Assembly: GCA_037127795.1 (NCBI GenBank)
Contig: JBAXXQ010000001.1
Location: forward strand, 144,252 to 208,251
DNA from: a bacterium
GTDB lineage: Bacteria > Patescibacteriota > Minisyncoccia > Phycocordibacterales > UBA9973
DNA: 64,000 bases
Reading direction: 5' to 3'
Shown: positions 44,775 to 53,758 of the stretch, one piece after another
How the letters are laid out: every line of letters starts with the position of its first letter
Numbering within the stretch: position 1 is the first letter of the stretch
Translations under genes and position numbers: made by a program
The notes under the pieces: generated by a model
What the model was told of the DNA's origin: nothing
Database searches by the model: none
Seen by the model: the letters and a program-made list of their open reading frames with translations, nothing else

Positions 44775-45257
44775 ATGGCAATTACAAAAGAGAAAAAACA
44801 ATCTATTGTTGCCGAATTCAAAGATTTGCTCGACGGTGCAGAATCAGTAGTATTTGTGAATTTTCACAAAATGACTGTGGCACAAAGTGGTGCATTCCGC
44901 CGCGCACTTCGCGCAGAGGGTGTAGACTTCAAAGTTGGTAAAAAGACCTTGCTCAAGCGTGTACTTGATACCAAAGGAATCACTGGAGAACTTCCAGCTC
45001 TCGATGGTGAGATCGGTATCGCTGTAGCAAAAGATTTGCTCGCACCAGCACGTGCAGTATATACATTCCAAAAAGCTACAAAATCTGTAGATATCGTTGG
45101 TGGTATTTTTGAAGGAAGTTACAAAAACAAACAAGAGATGCTCGCGATTGCAACAATTCCTTCACGTGAAGTATTGCTTTCACAAATCGCATACTTGCTC
45201 AAGAGTCCAATTCAGCGACTTGCGATCGCAGTTAGTGAAGTTGCAAAGACAAAATAA
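44775..45257 (+). CDS. rplJ: 50S ribosomal protein L10
   Basis: MAITKEKKQSIVAEFKDLLDGAESVVFVNFHKMTVAQSGAFRRALRAEGVDFKVGKKTL is a typical L10 N-terminus. Confidence 0.9.
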   Translation: MAITKEKKQSIVAEFKDLLDGAESVVFVNFHKMTVAQSGAFRRALRAEGVDFKVGKKTLLKRVLDTKGITGELPALDGEIGIAVAKDLLAPARAVYTFQKATKSVDIVGGIFEGSYKNKQEMLAIATIPSREVLLSQIAYLLKSPIQRLAIAVSEVAKTK

Positions 45258-45282
45258 TTAATAAATTAATATAAAAAATAGT

Positions 45283-45648
45283 ATGGCAAAATTTGATTCA
45301 TTTCTAACTGAGCTCGAAGGGGCATCAGTACTCGAACTCAACGAGCTTGTAAAAGCAATTGAGGAAAAATTTGGTGTATCTGCAGCAGCAGTTGCAGCAG
45401 CACCAGCAGCAGGCGCAGGAGAAGCGGCAGAAGTTAAAGATAGCTTCACTGTAGTTCTCGCATCAGCTGGCGAACAAAAGATCGCAGTTATGAAAGTTGT
45501 TAAGGAAGCTCTCGGTCTTGGTCTCAAAGAGGCTAAAGATATCGTTGATGGCGCACCAGCAACTCTTAAAGATGGTATGAAGAAAGAAGAAGCAGAAGCC
45601 CTCAAAAAAGCTGTTGAGGAAGCAGGCGGAAAGGTAGAATTGAAATAA
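45283..45648 (+). CDS. rplL: 50S ribosomal protein L7/L12
   Basis: Ala-rich hinge plus a conserved CTD ([27 protein letters not shown]...[19 protein letters not shown]). Confidence 0.95.
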
Positions 45649-45679
45649 TTCAATAAAAACCAATTTTCTTTATGAAATA

Positions 45680-45715
45680 CGGGCCCCCTTGTTGGCAAGG
45701 GGGCCCGTTTCGTAT
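45680..45715 (+). terminator. GC-rich terminator hairpin after rplL
   Basis: acgggcccccttgttggcaagggggcccgtttcgtat; unusually GC-rich for this genome. Confidence 0.7.
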
Positions 45716-45724
45716 AATAGGGGT

Positions 45725-46357
45725 ATGGATATTTTATCAAAATTATTGGGAGGGGTACCACGGGTCAAGATTATGCGCCTCTTTTTACTCAACCCAGAGC
45801 AGGCATTTTGCCTTGAGGATATTACAGATCGATCTCGTATGCAGGGTGCGCTTGCACGTCGGACACTTACACAGCTTGTTGGCATGTCTTTGGTAAAAAA
45901 GAAAAGCTTTATAAAGGAGGTTACAGATGCGCGTAATGGCAAGATAAAAAAGAAGCGCGTACAAGGGTGGATACTAAATACAGATTTCCCGTATATTAGT
46001 GAACTCAAACAATTACTCGTAGAGGGAGAGTTCTTCAAAAACGAAGACGTTGTTCGTCGATTCAAACCAGCAGGAAGAATTCAATTTCTCGTAGTGTCAG
46101 GACTTTTTATCCAACATAGTGGTAGTCGCCTTGATTTGCTTATAGTAGGGGACAATCTTCGTCGCAGTTATATTCAAAAGACTGTTTCTGTACTTGAAAG
46201 CGAGCTTGGTAAAGAGCTTACCTATGTGGTTTTTGAGGTTGCAGATTTCAAATACCGCGTGTCTATGTATGACAAACTTCTTCGGGATATGTTTGACTTC
46301 CCACATGAGCGACTTATCGCTGGAAAAGACTTTGTGCACTTTTCATTCCCAAATTAA
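45725..46357 (+). CDS. hypothetical protein with N-terminal winged-helix-like segment
   Basis: VPRVKIMRLFLLNPEQAFCLEDITDRS resembles an ArsR/PadR-type wHTH; C-terminal domain unassigned. Confidence 0.4.
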   Translation: MDILSKLLGGVPRVKIMRLFLLNPEQAFCLEDITDRSRMQGALARRTLTQLVGMSLVKKKSFIKEVTDARNGKIKKKRVQGWILNTDFPYISELKQLLVEGEFFKNEDVVRRFKPAGRIQFLVVSGLFIQHSGSRLDLLIVGDNLRRSYIQKTVSVLESELGKELTYVVFEVADFKYRVSMYDKLLRDMFDFPHERLIAGKDFVHFSFPN

Positions 46358-46450
46358 AGGTGGTATACTTATATCATGTCCTGTAAGGGGTACCCTTAGG
46401 GTCATTTAATAGTAAATTTTTATAATTACGCGCACAGGCGCATTCACAAT

Positions 46451-47134
46451 ATGCTTATTCAAACATGGAGCCAAGTATTCCAAGTATCACTCTTGAATCT
46501 TTGGTATGGATTTATCGGAACATTTCCAAAAATCGTCTTCATAATCGTTCTCTTTATTGTAGGATGGATTGTTGCAAAGACTATTGCTACTCTCGTAACA
46601 AAGGGTATCGATGCTCTTAAGATTGATTCTCTTTTCAAAAGTGCTGGCACAGAAGAAATTCTCGCACGTGCTGGATGGAAGCTTCACATCGGAGGACTTA
46701 TTGGATGGGTTGTTAAATGGCTTATCATATTAGGTTTCCTTGTTACTTCTGCAGATCTTCTTGGTCTTAGTGGGGTAACAGCATTCCTTAGTGTGATCTG
46801 GTTCTATATCCCACAAGTACTTCTTGCTGCTCTTATCCTTATCGCTGGTACAGTACTTGCAGACTTTGTTCGCAAGCTCATTACTGGTGGTGCTGCTATT
46901 GCACAAGTTCGTGCTTCAAAAATGATTGGAACAGTTGCATACTATGCAATCTGGGTTCTCTCAATCGTAACAGCTCTTGATAAGCTTGGTATTCTCGGAT
47001 ACTTTGGACAAGTATTGTTCACAGGTATTATTATCATGCTTGCACTTGCTTTTGGTCTCGCATTTGGTTTGGGTGGAAAGGATGCTGCTGCTCGATTCAT
47101 CAATCGAACCGCTGATGATCTTTCATCAAAATAA
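46451..47134 (+). CDS. integral membrane protein with duplicated conserved-TM-helix repeats (MscS N-terminal-like)
   Basis: Two internally similar halves (IIVLFIVGWIVAKTIATLV / LILIAGTVLADFVRKLITG), about six TM segments. Confidence 0.45.
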   Translation: MLIQTWSQVFQVSLLNLWYGFIGTFPKIVFIIVLFIVGWIVAKTIATLVTKGIDALKIDSLFKSAGTEEILARAGWKLHIGGLIGWVVKWLIILGFLVTSADLLGLSGVTAFLSVIWFYIPQVLLAALILIAGTVLADFVRKLITGGAAIAQVRASKMIGTVAYYAIWVLSIVTALDKLGILGYFGQVLFTGIIIMLALAFGLAFGLGGKDAAARFINRTADDLSSK

Positions 47135-47152
47135 ACAAACTAACGTTGCCTA

Positions 47153-47183
47153 TAAAAAACCACCTATTTTAGGTGGTTTTTTG
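47153..47183 (+). terminator. Rho-independent terminator
   Basis: aaaaaaccacctattttaggtggtttttt. Confidence 0.75.
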
Positions 47184-47211
47184 GTACTTTGGGGTGTGGA
47201 TAGGGAAATGC

Positions 47212-47240
47212 TTGACATTATTTCTCGCTTCGGCTAGAAT
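47212..47240 (+). promoter_or_regulatory. rRNA operon promoter (TTGACA, 17 nt spacer, TAGAAT)
   Basis: Consensus -35 and near-consensus -10 with 17-nt spacer about 260 nt upstream of 23S; boxA-like ctctttaataa at about 47388-47400. Confidence 0.6.
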
Positions 47241-47997
47241 AGTCCCACTTATGAGTAATACGAAAAACAAGCGTTCAAAACAGGGGTAACCCCGCAAGAG
47301 AATCTTGTGGCCGCCCCCAAAAAGGGCGGTTTTCGTATCACAATTAAGAATATGTCTTTTGACAAAAAAATCCTGTCACTTAGTGGAAACTCTTTAATAA
47401 GGGGGACTGCAGGTAATAAGTAGACAGACCTTCTGAAAACACTCCAAGTGGTTGGAGAAGTAGGAAGTAAAATTGATTTCTAGATTTCCTAATAGGAAAT
47501 AAGAGCATATGGTGGATGCCTAGGTTCTACATGGCGATGAAAGACGCAGTACGGCGAGCGATACGCTTCGGGGAGGTGCCTAACAACCTTTGATCCGGAG
47601 ATTTCTGAATGAGGAAACTCTATCAAGTAAACCTTGATAACTACTCTGCATAAGACAGACTAGAGCGCACCCAGGGAAGTGAAACATCTCAGTACCTGGA
47701 GGAAAAGAAAAAAATGTGGTGTATACCACAACATTCCCCGAGTAGCGGCGAGCGAAAAGGGAGGAGCCCAAACCTCTATCTTCGGATAGGGGGGTTGTAG
47801 GATAGAAACGTCGTTTTACGGAAAGAGTGAAAAAATTTGTGTATAGAAAAAGTTGTTGGAAACCAACGTCATAGCAGGTGATAGCCCTGTATTCGAAATG
47901 CACTTATCTCTTTTGTTTCTATTCCTGAGTACTTCAAGACATGAATAGCTTGAAGGAATCCGCCAGAACTAACTGGTAAGGCTAAATACATTGTAGA

Positions 47998-48037
<40 letters not shown>

Positions 48038-49491
48038 AACTCCGAGAGGAGGGTGAAATAGTACTGAAACCATATGCTTACAAGGAGTCGGAGCGGTTGC
48101 TTGCAACCGTCACGGCGTGCCTATTGAAGAATGAGCCAACGAGTTTATATATGTTGCAAGGCTAAGTGCAAAATGCATGGAGCCGAAGCGAAAGCGAGTG
48201 TGAAAAGCGCGTCCACTTAAGTGTGGGAAGTATCATGTATAAGACCCGAAGCCAGGTGAGCTACCCATGAGCAGGGTGAAGTGATTCGAAAGAATCATGG
48301 AGGCCCGAACCGGTTTGTCGTACAACGCATTCGGATGACTTGTGGGTTGGAGTGAAAAGCTTATCGAACCTGGTAATAGCTGGTTCTCTCCGAAATAGCT
48401 TTAGGGTTAGCGTCATGTGTTCCCCTTGGGGGTAGAGCACTGGAAAGTTTCGACAGGGAGCAATCTCGCGAAATTTATCAAACTCCGAATACCAAGGATT
48501 AAAAACATGGCAGTTAGACTACGGGGGCTAAGCTCCGTCAGTCAAAAGGGAAACAGCCCAGATCTCTAGTTAAGGTCCCTAAATATAGACTAAGTGCAAA
48601 CGAAGGATGTGAGATTTCTTCGACAATGAGGAAGTTGGCTTAGAAGCAGCCATCTTTTAAAGAAAGCGTAACAGCTCACTCATCAAGAGATCTTGCGCCG
48701 TAGATAATCGGGGCTAAGTCTATTACCGAAACTGAGGGCCCGACTAGAAGAAGAGCGGTAAGCAATAGCTTGCCACCCTCCTTCTGGTCGGGCGGTAGGA
48801 GAGTATTCGTATCTGCTGTGAAGGCGAAGGCGTGAGCCGTGCTGGAGCGTTACGAAGTAAGAATGTTGGCACAAGTAACCACAAGGAAGGTGAGATCCCT
48901 TCCCGCCGAAAAACCAAGGTTTCCAAAGCAACGATGATCGTCTTTGGGTTAGTCGGGTCCTAAGCTGATAGCGAATGCTGCAGGCGATGGACATAAGGTT
49001 AATATTCCTTAACTTCTTTCATATTCGATGGAGGGACGGAGTGTAGTACATACTGCAGATAATTGGATTTCTGTTTGTATACCGCGTATGGAGGATAGGT
49101 AAATCCGTTCTCCTGACTTTAATGTCACTATCAGGTATGCATCGTCATCTGGTACGCCAGATTAAGAGTATGGAGCACGCTTCCAAGAAAAGCTTCTAAG
49201 ATTAGTATGAGAGAACCCGTACCGCAAACCGACACAGGTGGTTAGGTCGAGAAGACCAAGGCGAACGAGTGAGAGATCCCCAAGGAACTCGGCAAAAAAG
49301 CAGCCGTAACTTCGGGATAAGGCTTGCCGGCAGAAATGTCGGCCGCAGCGAAAGTATTCCTGGCAACTGTTTATCAAAAACACAGCTCCCTGCGAACACG
49401 AAAGTGGATGTATAGGGGGTGACACCTGACCAATGCCAGAAGGTTAATTACGGATGGTGCGATTATATCAAGCTGATCTGTACAAGCCCTG

Positions 49492-49526
<35 letters not shown>

Positions 49527-49734
49527 TCTGTTTTTCAATTTCGATTGGAAGGCAGAACGGACTAGGACCGCGTATAGAAAACGATAAACAATTTAAAAGA
49601 ATAATCATTACATTTCAAGCTACCTAACATGTCGTAATACATGTTTAGTCCATTGTGATTAACGAGAGACCAACGTCACAGACCCGAACTCGCAAGAGAG
49701 GGTTAAGAGAGAGTCCAACTGAGAGGAATAGTTG
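49527..49734 (+). ncRNA. intervening sequence in 23S at E. coli position L1931 (putative small group I intron, no ORF)
   Basis: Exon reads ...ggtcctaaggU | insert | AGCGAAATTCCTTGTCGGGTAAGTTCCGAC...; the 5' exon ends in U and the insert ends in G (ttG), as expected for group I splicing; L1931 is a known intron homing site. Confidence 0.55.
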
Positions 49735-50395
49735 AGCGAAATTCCTTGTCGGGTAAGTTCCGACGCGCACGAATGGTGTAATGACTGGGAAACTGTCTCG
49801 GGGATTTGCTCGGTGAAAATACAGTACCGGTGAAGATGCCGGTTACCTGCAGTTAGACGAAAAGACCCCGGAAGCTTTACTACAGTTTGGTATTGGGTAT
49901 ATTTGTTTGTTACGTAGCATAGGAGGGAGACTTTGAAGCGCGCATTTCGGTCCGCGTGGAGTCGTCAGTGAAATACCTCTTTTCAAATGGATATATCCTA
50001 ACCACTACGGAAAAAACGCAGTGGGACAGTGCCTGATGGGTAGTTTTACTGGGGCGGTATCCTCCAAAAGAGTAACGGAGGAGTTCAAAGGTTAGCTAGG
50101 CGCGAATGGAAACCGTGCCGATAGTGCAATGGCATAAGCTAGCTTGACTGTAAGTCGGCCATGACGAGCAGGTGCGAAAGCAGAACATAGTGAACCGACA
50201 ATTCGCATTAGATGCGGTTGAAGATTAACGGATAGAAGCTACTCCGGGGATAACAGGCTAGTTCCGCCTAAGCGTCCATAGCGACGGCGGAGTTCGGCAC
50301 CTCGATGTCGGCTCACCTTATCCTGGGGCTGGAGAAGGTCCCAAAGGTTTGGCTGTTCGCCAATTAAAAAGGTACGCGAGCTGGGTTCAGACCGT

Positions 50396-50770
50396 CTAGG
50401 AATTAGAAAAGTGTGCAATTTTATTGTACTTCAAATCTGATTTCTAGATCGTCTGAATCCCGAGGAGAGTGAAAAAGAAAGAAAATTACAAAGATTTATT
50501 AAACATTATGTTTTAGTCTTTTCGTCTAATATAAGTAAAGTTCATATACAGGAGTATATGAAAGAAAGATAGAATAAAGAGAACCATCTTAATACGGCGG
50601 TCGTCTATGGTGACATAGAATGACATGCTCGACTGATATCGGTGAAACCCCCACAGGGGGGTAATACCGAGGGAACTATAGCAATATAGACCCGTAGAGA
50701 CTACACGTTGAGGTGCTTAGAAATAAGTACAAGATATAGTCCGATCCATACAGTAATGTGTGAAAAGATG
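50396..50770 (+). ncRNA. intervening sequence in 23S at E. coli position L2593 (putative group I intron, no ORF)
   Basis: Exon ...gagctgggttcagaccgU | 375-nt insert ending ...aaagatG | CGTAAGACAGGTTGG...; the AT-rich 5' half and GC-richer 3' half contain no ORF. Confidence 0.55.
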
Positions 50771-51147
50771 CGTAAGACAGGTTGGTCTCCTATCTACTGC
50801 AGGCGTTGATGATTGAGGAAGTTCGTTCCTAGTACGAGAGGACCGGAATGAACGAACCTCTGGTGTATGGGCTCTACCGCCAGGTGGATTGCCCAGTAGC
50901 TATGTTCGGAATGGATAACCTCTGAAAGCATCTAAGAGGGAAGCCAGTTCCAAGATTAGTCATCGTTGAGGGCCGTGAGAGATGATCACGTTGATAGGCA
51001 CTATGTGGAAGCGCAGTAATGTGTTAAGCAGAGGTGTACTAATTGCCCAATTCCTATTAGGAAATCTGGAAATCAACCCATTCGCAAGAATGGTTCAGAA
51101 AATTAGATTGTAGTGTATACTACAATCGCAAACACATTTGAGTGCTT

Positions 51148-51260
<113 letters not shown>

Positions 51261-51274
51261 AAAGTACTTAAAAT

Positions 51275-51305
51275 AAAAAAGCCAGTCGCAAGACTGGCTT
51301 TTTTG
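51275..51305 (+). terminator. rRNA operon terminator
   Basis: aaaaaagccagtcgcaagactggctttttt. Confidence 0.8.
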
Positions 51306-51322
51306 CTGTATGATATAGAGAT

Positions 51323-52102
51323 ATGACATGGGCAGGAGAAAGACGATTGCAATATATAGGTGGGGTGATGATTTTTGCTGCACTTATATCTGGTGCAGTG
51401 TATTGGAAGTATTTTAAAAAAGCTCCTATGTGTACCGATGGTATACAAAACGGTACAGAGACCGGTATAGACTGTGGTGGTATTTGTTCAAATTATTGTA
51501 AAAATGATATTGCGGATCCAAAGATTATTTGGCGACAATCGTTTACTGTCACCCCAACAGCTAGTACTGCTGTTGCATATATTGCGCATGGCTATGCGGG
51601 TGCAAGTACTCGTAATATGAAGTATCGCTTTGAATTATTTGATGCAAATGAAAACGTACTTGCAACTCGTGATGGAAATACGTTTGTCGGTACAGTCGGT
51701 AATACTGCAATAGTAGAGCCGCTTATACAAGTTGCAGGTGCACAAGTTGCTCGAGTAAAGTTTTCTATTTTAGGAAATATTTTATGGGAAAAAACAGATC
51801 CTACTATTTCAACATTGGTTATTAAAACAGATATCAATACTATAGAACCATTTTCTGCGGGGACTCGTGTGCGATCACTTTTGGAAAATAAAACAGATAC
51901 TAGTTTTAGTAATATCCCTGTTGCTATTATTTTGTACGACAAAGATGATAATGCAATAGCTAGTTCTATTGCGACAGTTCCTAGTATTCCTGCAAATCAA
52001 AATAAAGAAATAGTGTTTACCTGGCCAGACACAAATCTTGCAAAACAGATTGCACATATAGAAGTACTTCCTCGTATTAATCCATTTACTGTACAAAAAT
52101 AA
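51323..52102 (+). CDS. hypothetical membrane-anchored extracytoplasmic protein (Cys-rich N-terminal module)
   Basis: TM (VMIFAALISGAVYW) then CTDGIQNGTETGIDCGGICSNYC; stop overlaps the ftsW/rodA start. Confidence 0.45.
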   Translation: MTWAGERRLQYIGGVMIFAALISGAVYWKYFKKAPMCTDGIQNGTETGIDCGGICSNYCKNDIADPKIIWRQSFTVTPTASTAVAYIAHGYAGASTRNMKYRFELFDANENVLATRDGNTFVGTVGNTAIVEPLIQVAGAQVARVKFSILGNILWEKTDPTISTLVIKTDINTIEPFSAGTRVRSLLENKTDTSFSNIPVAIILYDKDDNAIASSIATVPSIPANQNKEIVFTWPDTNLAKQIAHIEVLPRINPFTVQK

Positions 52103-53223
52103 TGCGTCGCTTTTTTCAAAATATTGATATAGTGTTATTGCTTAGTGTTGTCCCTCTCGCACTTGGAGGTATTGTGACGATGATGTCTTTTACAGGGGAT
52201 TCAAAAAATGCACTGCACCAAGGTTTGTGGTTTGTCATTGGAGTAGGGTTTATTTTGCTCCTATCGCGAATAAATGTACGTAGCCTTCGAGAATCAAGGT
52301 ATATTAGTATTGCATTTATCGCATCGCTTTTTTTATTGGTATTTGTATTGGCGACACACAAGATTAATGGTGCAAAAAGTTGGTTTTCTTTGGGAGGGTT
52401 TGCGTTTCAGCCTGTAGACTTGGTTAAGTTGTTGGTTATTTTGATGCTGGCAAAATATTTTTCACGACGCCATGTTGAGATAAAAAATATTAAACACATT
52501 GTTGTTTCTTCAATATATGCACTAGTACCTATGTTTCTTATTATGTTACAACCAGACTTTGGATCTGCTATGATTATTGGTCTTTTGTGGTTTGGTATTG
52601 CGCTTGTTGCTGGTATATCAAAAAAACACTTATTTATACTGCTTGGAATAGTTGTTGTAGTATTTTCTTGTTCATGGATGTTTTTGTTTAAACCATATCA
52701 AAAGGATCGTATTATAAACTTTGTAAATCCAGGGCATGATATTCGTAAAAGTGGATACAATGTGTATCAGTCTACTATTGCAGTAGGATCTGGTGGTTTT
52801 TTGGGTAAGGGGCTTGGGTACGGAACGCAGTCTCGACTTAATTATCTACCCGAATACAAGACAGATTTTATGTTTGCAGCGTTTACAGAAGAATGGGGAT
52901 TTATTGGGGGACTTATTGTAGTAGTTTCTTTGATTATATTTTTGTGGCGTATTTTGCAACACGCAGAACACGCTGCTTCAAATTTTGAAACTTTATTTTG
53001 TGTAGGGTATGCACTACTTATCATAGGACATGCTATTATTAATATAGGAATGAATATTGGTATTATGCCGGTGACCGGGGTACCATTACCATTTATGAGT
53101 TATGGTGGGTCGCACATTTTTGCAGAGTGTGTAGGACTTGGAATTATTATTTCTATGAGTCGCTATGAACGATCAATACATAGAGATGATTTGCAAAAAG
53201 AATTTTATGGATACAATACATAG
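52102..53223 (+). CDS. SEDS-family peptidoglycan glycosyltransferase (FtsW/RodA)
   Basis: Ten TMs and the conserved C-terminal MPVTGVPLPFMSYGGSHIF motif. Confidence 0.85.
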   Translation: MRRFFQNIDIVLLLSVVPLALGGIVTMMSFTGDSKNALHQGLWFVIGVGFILLLSRINVRSLRESRYISIAFIASLFLLVFVLATHKINGAKSWFSLGGFAFQPVDLVKLLVILMLAKYFSRRHVEIKNIKHIVVSSIYALVPMFLIMLQPDFGSAMIIGLLWFGIALVAGISKKHLFILLGIVVVVFSCSWMFLFKPYQKDRIINFVNPGHDIRKSGYNVYQSTIAVGSGGFLGKGLGYGTQSRLNYLPEYKTDFMFAAFTEEWGFIGGLIVVVSLIIFLWRILQHAEHAASNFETLFCVGYALLIIGHAIINIGMNIGIMPVTGVPLPFMSYGGSHIFAECVGLGIIISMSRYERSIHRDDLQKEFYGYNT

Positions 53224-53758
53224 TTTACAAATAGATTTATTTAGTCATATTGCAACCTTTGGTGAAAAAACTCCATGGGCTGATCCTTTTTTTGTAGCAC
53301 TCTCATACTGGTTTTTTTATCTCGTACTAGGTGTTGTTGTGGTGCGATTGTTGTATAAAATAATACAGGCAAAATCTATACAAGAAAAAAAGCAATCTTT
53401 CAAAGAAGCATTTGTACTACTTTTCTCACTAGTGCTTACATGGATGGTTGTGACATTGATAAAAGTTCTAACTGCAGAGCCACGCCCGTTTGAGGTTATA
53501 GACAATGTTCGATTGTTATCTCCCTATATTGGAGGAGGGGATTCATTTCCTTCAGGGCATACTGCTATTGCAGCAGCTCTAGCTGGAGCTATACGGCCAT
53601 ATCATCACCGTGCCGGGGCTTTGTTGATACTATTTGCGTTATTGGTAGGAATTTCTCGTGTATACCTCGGATTACATTTTCCAATAGATGTTTTTGTGGG
53701 ATTTCTCGTAGGGCTTTTGATTGCTGATATCGTACGCCGTTTGGCAGATATGTTGTAA
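53207..53758 (+). CDS. PAP2-family phosphatase (possibly an undecaprenyl-pyrophosphate phosphatase)
   Basis: PAP2 motifs KxxxxxxRP (KVLTAEPRP), PSGH (FPSGHTAIA) and SRxxxxxHxxxD (SRVYLGLHFPIDV). Confidence 0.75.
   Translation: MDTIHSLQIDLFSHIATFGEKTPWADPFFVALSYWFFYLVLGVVVVRLLYKIIQAKSIQEKKQSFKEAFVLLFSLVLTWMVVTLIKVLTAEPRPFEVIDNVRLLSPYIGGGDSFPSGHTAIAAALAGAIRPYHHRAGALLILFALLVGISRVYLGLHFPIDVFVGFLVGLLIADIVRRLADML

Follow-up and report, generated by a model that had tools for sequence, protein, structure and literature searches.

What is a 375-nucleotide (nt) sequence without an evident gene doing inside the 23S ribosomal RNA (rRNA) gene of a patescibacterium? The stretch analysed here, hereafter the window, comprises 64,000 nt of contig JBAXXQ010000001.1 from a member of the Patescibacteria, also known as the candidate phyla radiation (CPR). 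Run on the whole window, Rfam locates in it a 5S gene (51151-51259) and, at 47489-51062, a bacterial 23S gene that is 3574 nt long against the 2925 positions of the Rfam model, an excess of 649 nt. We consider it quite probable that positions 50396-50770 are a group I intron, inserted after U2593 (Escherichia coli numbering) of a Paceibacteria-type CPR 23S gene, that it carries no endonuclease gene, and that its AT-rich half is an expanded P1 loop.

Where exactly does the insert lie? The original prediction had placed it at 50396-50770 between ...GACCGU and CGUAAGACAG (E. coli U2593/C2594), and this position is borne out both by the sequence and by the Rfam large-subunit rRNA alignment, which opens an insertion of about 378 nt directly after ...GGGUUCAGACCGUC(U). 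The intron/exon reading is ...GAGCTGGGTTCAGACCGT / CTAGGAATT ... GAAAAGATG / CGTAAGACAGGTTGG (at the DNA level, ...GACCGT / CTAGGAATT...GAAAAGATG / CGTAAGACAGG), and the uninterrupted exon junction, which is located inside 23S helix 93, would read GGGUUCAGACCGU-CGUAAGACAGG / GGGTTCAGACCGTCGTAAGACAGGTTGG. A repeated C leaves the boundary ambiguous by 1 nt; this ambiguity is resolved by homologues that have T, A or G as their first intron base, all of which show the arrangement ...CCGT / ... G / CGTRAGACAG. The site is L2593, since a Thermosynechococcus locus (L024) has a 744-nt intron at the identical junction and the T. elongatus L2593 intron is listed as 745 nt (Haugen 2007, PMC1995217). The description of the insert as ORF-less also holds, in that no open reading frame (ORF) of at least 60 amino acids (aa) overlaps it and the longest wholly internal one is 37 aa, on the minus strand. 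So does its division by base composition, with a GC content of 28.4% in 50396-50585 (190 nt) and 43.8% in 50586-50770 (185 nt). The 5′ exon ends in U and the insert in G, as had been remarked, and the terminal G recurs in nearly all parsed homologues.

These homologues were found by scanning one genome per species for AAGATATAGTCC followed, after a gap of 10-40 nt, by CGTRAGACAGKT. At least 119 loci were recovered, and at least 109 of them were parsed as L2593 introns of 233-809 nt, all at the same junction with an exon ending in ...CGT. Among the loci listed, the hosts are mostly Patescibacteria/CPR metagenome-assembled genomes (MAGs), together with MAGs labelled Omnitrophota, Gammaproteobacteria and Planctomycetia, and one Thermosynechococcus. 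Two classes can be distinguished. Class A (36 introns among the loci listed) has the host exon GAACGU and a short canonical P1 (GAACGU / AAAUUACAUU GCGUUC), and its P7 is separated from P3′ by an extension corresponding to P7.1/P7.2 of Haugen et al. (PMC1995217). Class B (73 introns among the loci listed, including that of the window) has the host exon RACCGU and is without a P7.1/P7.2-type extension, and its 5′ part runs in the order 5′ splice site, hairpin, 3-4-nt linker, GUCUGAAUCC, CCGAGG, variable region, YACG-GCGG and P2.

The Rfam group I covariance search that had been proposed for this insert returned, on a 601-nt slice, a full-model match to Intron_gpI (RF00028) at 50578-50763 with 49.6 bits and E = 1.3e-11, although this is 0.4 bits below the family's gathering threshold; no group II family matched the same slice, even at E up to 10. 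A model of P2 to P9 was built by hand on the window sequence and tested on a MAFFT alignment (A2) of 35 class B cores. The elements of this core, all on the plus strand, are as follows.

50605-50618 (+): P2 hairpin with a GUGA tetraloop; 5 of 5 pairs change on both sides, and 95% of cells are paired.
50628-50633 (+): P3 5′ strand CUCGAC, whose partner is at 50707-50712; 6 of 6 pairs change on both sides, 89.5% paired.
50639-50670 (+): P4 (UCGGU/ACCGA), J4/5 GAAA, P5 (CCCCC/GGGGG) and J5/4; P4 is 98.9% paired and nearly invariant, and 5 of 5 P5 pairs covary.
50671-50693 (+): P6/P6a hairpin with a GCAA loop; 6 of 8 pairs change on both sides. This is the site of the LAGLIDADG gene in relatives and is empty here.
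50694-50712 (+): J6/7 GUAGA, P7 5′ strand GACUA, CAC and P3 3′ strand GUUGAG; P7 is invariant and 100% paired in the 35 sequences (Rfam consensus AGACUAAACG).
50713-50730 (+): P8 hairpin with a GAAA tetraloop; 7 of 7 pairs change on both sides.
50731-50741 (+): J8/7 AAGAUA and P7 3′ strand UAGUC; invariant AAGATATAGTCC, matching the Rfam consensus.
50747-50762 (+): P9 hairpin with a GUAA tetraloop; 5 of 6 pairs change on both sides, 93.6% paired.

Over the 47 pairs of this model, 90.1% of the cells in the 35 homologues are paired, a figure that falls to 36-41% once the 3′ strands are displaced by one to three columns. Changes on both sides are seen at 35 of the 47 pairs, and not one of 500 shuffles reaches any of the observed measures. 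P4 and P7 are essentially invariant, and the covariation lies in P2, P3, P5, P6a, P8 and P9; P2, P6a, P8 and P9 are all capped by GNRA tetraloops (GUGA, GCAA, GAAA and GUAA, respectively). The segments J6/7-P7 (GUAGAGACUA) and J8/7-P7′ (AAGAUAUAGUCC) agree with the Rfam group I consensus and do not vary among the 35 sequences, the invariance of J8/7-P7′ being partly by construction because AAGATATAGTCC served as the scan pattern. The Intron_gpI match and the covariation of the core thus uphold the assignment of the L2593 insert to group I, and they place P2-P9 at 50593-50770, so that the GC-richer 3′ half is the catalytic core, as had been supposed.

How would such a core recognize its exons? 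The splice sites and the internal guide are the following.

50395-50396 (+): 5′ splice site between U2593 and C, the first intron base; the same junction in at least 109 homologous introns.
50593-50602 (+): internal guide, UACG (P10) followed by GCGGUC (P1); in every class B intron, YACGGCGG immediately precedes P2.
50770-50774 (+): terminal omega G (50770), 3′ splice site and 3′ exon CGUA; G precedes CGTRAGACAG in nearly all parsed homologues, and P10 covaries.

The sequence UACG-GCGGUC is complementary to the ligated exons GACCGU and CGUA, with a G·U pair at U2593, and it occupies the same position relative to P2 as the canonical class A guide CAUU-GCGUUC. In class B, the guide base 5′ of ACG follows the fourth base of the 3′ exon: where the exon has A the guide has U in 12 of 12 cases, and where the exon has G the guide has C in 48 of 54 (A in five and U in one). 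This tracking of the host 3′ exon identifies the guide and indicates that selection has acted on exon alignment. Expansion of the P1 loop puts about 200 nt between the 5′ splice site and this guide.

The expanded loop contains a second segment that is able to pair with the 5′ exon, which we call S2. The features concerned are listed here.

50383-50392 (+): 5′ exon segment GGGUUCAGAC (-13 to -4 relative to the splice site, approximately E. coli 2581-2590), paired with 50451-50460 in the minimum free energy (MFE) fold.
50396-50447 (+): hairpin P1a, CUAGGAAUUAGA ... UCUGAUUUCUAG, with an inner GUGCAAU/AUUGUAC stem; z = -5.4, beginning at the first intron base.
50448-50450 (+): linker AUC; in the fold its A pairs with U-1, its U pairs with G-2 and its C is mismatched opposite C-3, so that the helix continues through the splice site.
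50451-50460 (+): S2, GUCUGAAUCC, complementary to exon positions -13 to -4 and covarying with exon variants.

Four exon haplotypes at positions -8/-6 (CA, CG, UA and UG) are matched by S2 bases GU, GC, AU and AC in 63 of the 66 parsed class B introns; in the other three, the regular expression had caught the preceding hairpin, and S2 read by eye is AUCUAAA, as expected. The exon/S2 helix also contains G·U wobbles (read by eye), with an S2 U opposite G-11 and, in the GUUUGAG variants, an S2 G opposite U-10, which favours pairing at the RNA level over an inverted repeat at the DNA level. In relatives, the paired bases of the P1a stem carry substitutions on both strands (CUAG/CUAG, CGAG/CUCG, CCUG/CAGG and CCAG/CUGG), and the class B linkers, read by eye from a list, mostly start with A, then C or U, then a base mismatched opposite C-3. 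In the MFE structure, these parts form one long helix that starts at exon position -13, spans the splice site and extends into the first hairpin, 24 bp with a single mismatch. This long helix crosses P1 topologically, so the two would either alternate or form a pseudoknot. It is plausible that S2 holds the 5′ exon and that the unpaired C-3 (in some members C-4 as well) lets GCGG invade to form the reactive P1.

On this basis we tentatively propose, with somewhat less than even confidence, that the class B L2593 introns, and apparently also the L1931 elements described below, share an undescribed 5′ architecture: a hairpin that starts at the first intron base, an exon clamp of about 10 nt within an expanded P1 loop, and a distal guide, with P1 formed by way of a pseudoknot or a switch. 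A search of the open-access full-text literature found no description of this class B 5′ architecture. In the proposed sequence of events, the core would fold after transcription, S2 would clamp the upstream exon and GCGGUC would make the reactive P1. An external guanosine would then attack at U2593, UACG/CGUA (P10) and the terminal G would align the 3′ exon, and ligation would restore helix 93. For P1 to form, the local helix (U-1/A, G-2/U) would have to open or to coexist with it as a pseudoknot.

Three loci have internal copies of the exon sequence, ACUCAAAC and UUCAAGAC, that are able to pair with their own S2: L018 and L084, where the copy follows S2 by about 15 nt, and L033. These copies suggest that S2 may be sequestered once the exon is absent.

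Might the long local hairpin, in which exon positions -13 to -1 pair with S2 and the linker and which continues into P1a, itself be the real P1, with a U-A pair at the splice site and YACGGCGG serving only as a P10 guide or in some other role? It is the MFE structure, it covaries with the exon, and the A and C/U opposite U-1 and G-2 are conserved. Against it, GCGG supplies the canonical G·U wobble in every class B intron and stands next to the P10 guide and to P2, just like the guide in class A. The base opposite C-3 is mismatched in most members, so that pairing at the reactive site is poorly conserved, and a U-A pair at the cleavage site would be contrary to the near-universal G·U of group I introns. 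We therefore regard a local P1 as improbable and retain GCGGUC as the P1 strand.

A similarly slight probability attaches to the idea that an element of group I descent has ceased to splice itself, and is either retained in the rRNA or removed by an RNase without ligation, leaving a fragmented 23S. RNase III-type intervening sequences are also present in CPR rRNA genes, the Rfam score is below threshold, the 24-bp exon-intron duplex could be a substrate for RNase III, and a 23S group I intron of Simkania is reportedly unspliced. Intervening sequences of that type, however, take the form of a lengthened stem in place of a helix tip, at sites such as helix 9, 25 or 45, and have no ribozyme core; the insert does not resemble them, because it lies at an intron site in helix 93 and contains a complete group I core. 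All elements of that core are intact and invariant and its helices covary, and the guide tracks changes of the host exon on either side of the junction, which is sensible only if ligation alignment has been selected. Moreover, helix 93 adjoins the peptidyl-transferase centre, and neither a break nor 375 additional nt would be easily tolerated there.

What, then, fills the remainder of the AT-rich half? The segment 50383-50612 folds at -63.8 kcal/mol, compared with -40.7 ± 4.1 for shuffled sequences (z = -5.65), and the MFE fold of the AT-rich half reproduces the exon/S2 helix, the first hairpin and a further hairpin, Hb. Downstream of S2 the following features were recognized.

50459-50466 (+): CCCGAGGA, a conserved motif that few class B introns lack; even the 233-nt minimal form has it.
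50467-50508 (+): A-rich, apparently unstructured stretch (MFE -0.2 kcal/mol, z = +1.3).
50509-50529 (+): U-rich block UGUUUUAGUCUUUUCGUCUAA, nearly invariant in 10 relatives.
50541-50562 (+): hairpin Hb, UUCAUAUAC AGGA GUAUAUGAA; z = -5.0.
50565-50588 (+): AAAGAUAG ... GAACCAUC, conserved blocks that lead up to the guide and whose columns do not vary in alignment A1.

In ten of ten relatives, a perfect hairpin of unrelated sequence stands at the position of Hb (z from -3.3 to -6.6), in addition to the splice-site hairpin, and the blocks CGUCUGAAUCC, UGUU..AGUCUUUUCGU, AAAGAUA, AACCA and UACGGCGG are invariant among the ten. The more distant introns keep a shorter module, and the 233-nt intron at L033 is without the module but retains the hairpin, S2, CCGAGG and the guide. 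For the U-rich block, RNAalifold predicts a pairing of GUCUUUU to AAAGAU at 50566-50571, and distant relatives keep a CUUUUC/GAAAAG-type hairpin there. The MFE-predicted helix CGAGGAGA/UCUUUUCG ('Px') was rejected as the main pairing, given that relatives without CGAGG keep the CUUUUC/GAAAAG-type hairpin and that RNAalifold prefers GUCUUUU/AAAGAU; both strands of Px are nearly invariant, and neither pairing is thereby proven. As partners of CCGAGG we considered the P4 5′ strand (an alternative P4), the P3 5′ strand, J2/3 and the 23S segment CCUCGAUGUC, and none of these covaries with it. The last of them, whose complement is CGAGG together with GACAUC of the minimal introns, was also set aside because the strand topology is implausible and GACAUC is absent from the window. 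The idea that the 5′ half is a partial duplicate or remnant of a second intron (a twintron), suggested by UAGUC and AAAGAU(A)G look-alikes, was set aside, these being short motif resemblances only. A metagenome scan with the pattern GAACCANCN{2,12}ACGGCGG gave 120 chance matches and no intron.

The original prediction had suggested that this half might be a decayed homing-endonuclease ORF, and the endonuclease-profile check that it suggested was carried out with translated searches (tblastn) and Pfam. Among the loci listed, the L2593 introns that reach about 670-810 nt carry genes for single-motif LAGLIDADG proteins (Pfam LAGLIDADG_1; carriers L113, L100, L051, L042, L015 and L009). In class B, the LAGLIDADG ORFs are bounded by ACCGAGGGAAG immediately upstream and by CCCGUAGAGACUA downstream, which places them within the P6 loop, and P6 of the window intron is a clean 23-nt hairpin with a GCAA loop. 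In a tblastn search of the window intron with the endonucleases of 25 relatives, no hit lay in the AT-rich half and the best one, in the core, had an E of about 0.09, whereas the same search detected a frameshifted endonuclease pseudogene in L104 at E = 2e-48. Pfam likewise found nothing relevant in six stop-free fragments of the intron. Because the ORF of the relatives sits in L6 and both searches were negative, with a working control for the first, the prediction of a decayed gene did not survive. That the AT-rich 5′ half is the relic of a homing-endonuclease gene (LAGLIDADG, GIY-YIG or other), the 3′ half alone being functional RNA, is hardly credible in spite of the low GC content (28% over the half and 24% in 50466-50592), the occurrence of both ORF-less and ORF-bearing versions at L2593 and the single unstructured stretch of 42 nt, since this region holds invariant RNA motifs, covarying hairpins and an exon-pairing segment, and the same layout is found in the 233-nt minimal intron L033.

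In some relatives, other reading frames are found where the endonuclease gene normally stands. In class A, loci L085 and L106 have a 120-aa ORF in place of the LAGLIDADG gene; the Pfam scan, which covered the L085 ORF only, identified it as 23S_rRNA_IVP (E = 3.7e-28), and the L106 ORF is near-identical to it. In class B, loci L096, L090 and L073 have P6-loop ORFs of 67-83 aa without a Pfam match, that of L096 containing a hydrophobic, membrane-helix-like stretch. At L031, a second Intron_gpI match (1190-1460, 70.7 bits) lies about 75 nt downstream of the L2593 intron, so that a further 23S site is occupied there.

Several observations weigh against our reading of 50396-50770 as a group I intron with an expanded P1 loop. 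First, its score lies under the Rfam gathering threshold of 50 bits, and a scan of the whole window at gathering threshold reported no intron family. The shortfall is marginal, and homologues at the same site score above the threshold (L061, 52.2; L066, 50.4; L097, 53.0; L070, 56.5; and L033, 60.3 bits); membership of group I follows from homology to these same-site introns. Second, in the MFE fold the splice-site U pairs with an A in the long local helix and not with the guide G, so that the formation of P1 would need a rearrangement. Third, most correctly parsed relatives have two AU-rich hairpins (z from -2.8 to -5.4) at the equivalent of 50467-50508, the exceptions being L066 and L074; the window intron has lost these two hairpins, and its Hb loop is without the CUGCAA motif conserved in relatives, which suggests that some peripheral contacts may be decaying. 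Fourth, our reading assigns no role to CCGAGG or to the U-rich block. Finally, it is from conservation that we infer self-splicing of the window intron.

Does the excess length of the 23S gene have a second source? A shorter insert of 208 nt lies at L1931 (49527-49734), with the junctions exon ...CCUAAGGU / UCUG ... AGUUG / AGCGAAAUUCC. The two inserts had been expected to account for the whole excess of about 650 nt; together they contribute 583 nt (375 plus 208), leaving an exon-only length of 2991 nt, and the rest consists of small expansions elsewhere. Rfam found no match when the L1931 element was searched alone, as a 223-nt slice. Homologues of 206-296 nt are present at L078 (91% identical), L061, L099, L074, L093 and L030. 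As we read the alignment, the window element has a splice-site hairpin, an exon-pairing segment AGGACC and a distal guide, AUUUC..GCU-ACCUA, as well as covarying P2, P3 and P9-like helices, with about 8 nt in place of P4-P6, compared with about 110 nt in L030. The element therefore looks like a miniature group-I-like intron without a P4-P6 domain, in which, judging from the alignment, the two-part design of exon recognition appears to recur. In nine loci (L027, L029, L034, L036, L045, L079, L109, L112 and L114), the L2593 intron is present and the L1931 insertion absent (the 23S of L029 is 93% identical to that of the window), and this indicates that the two elements are gained or lost independently.

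How did the L2593 intron come to be in this genome? The 23S exons of the window are 92-95% identical to those of Paceibacterota, Nomurabacteria and Minisyncoccia MAGs, and the most similar introns among the loci listed, L078 (79% over the core) followed by L066, L061, L074, L099 and L044, are found in these same MAGs. This co-occurrence of the closest introns with the closest 23S relatives suggests vertical inheritance. Since it encodes no endonuclease, it would not move by DNA homing. As for its surroundings, the 23S-5S pair has no upstream 16S gene (45000-53300 examined) and is flanked by ORFs for an MscS-like transmembrane-helix protein (46451-47134) and for FtsW/RodA (52102-53223), and no tRNA gene was found across the whole 64-kb window.

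Previous investigations provide two kinds of relative for this intron. Cyanobacterial L2593 introns (Synechococcus C9, S. lividus C1 and Thermosynechococcus elongatus; PMC1995217) share with it an identical insertion point, a homologous core including J6/7, J8/7 and P7, and a guide directly 5′ of P2. Introns of this cyanobacterial type (class A) have a short canonical P1 hairpin, a P7.1/P7.2 extension of about 65 nt and usually a LAGLIDADG gene, whereas the window intron (class B) has neither P7.1/P7.2 nor a gene, and has an expanded P1 loop with S2 and a guide adapted to GACCGU. The Chlamydomonas chloroplast Cr.LSU intron, which encodes I-CreI, is a further L2593 intron. For the CPR, Tsurumaki 2024 (PMC11270868) reports insertions in 82% of 23S genes, with group I introns that cluster at 1917, 1931, 1952, 2593, 2604 and 2657; of all the 23S group I introns, 211 have an ORF and 222 do not; ORF-bearing and ORF-less introns at one site are described as highly similar outside the ORF, and CPR rRNA insertions are stated, citing Brown et al., to be removed from transcripts. 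The window intron resembles the ORF-less CPR L2593 introns of that paper, first noted by Brown et al. 2015, in clade, gene, site and group I type, LAGLIDADG_1-bearing versions coexisting with them. The paper appears to class insertions by Rfam model, without a description of RNA architecture, and the approach would probably file the window copy, 0.4 bits under the threshold, as an uncharacterised insertion. L2593 group I introns with or without endonuclease genes are already documented as common in CPR, and to this record the window copy adds little.

The two-part recognition of the 5′ exon may be modestly novel. Known parallels are the EBS1/EBS2-IBS1/IBS2 pairings (exon- and intron-binding sites) of group II introns, the alternative 5′-exon hairpin P(-1) of the Tetrahymena pre-rRNA and the extended guides of engineered trans-splicing group I ribozymes. 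As in these systems, two segments of the window intron would pair with adjacent stretches of the 5′ exon, and a competing local helix would include the splice site. Unlike them, the window element would be a group I intron with S2 inside the P1 loop, and the likeness should be taken as an analogy only.

Because the window copy falls just under the Rfam threshold, pipelines that apply gathering cut-offs call such rRNA genes over-long or broken and under-count their introns. If the proposed architecture is true, the clamp could keep the 5′ exon in place, or set when splicing happens with respect to rRNA folding. If confirmed experimentally, it would be an instructive natural variant of the way in which group I introns hold their substrates, and could guide the design of trans-splicing ribozymes.

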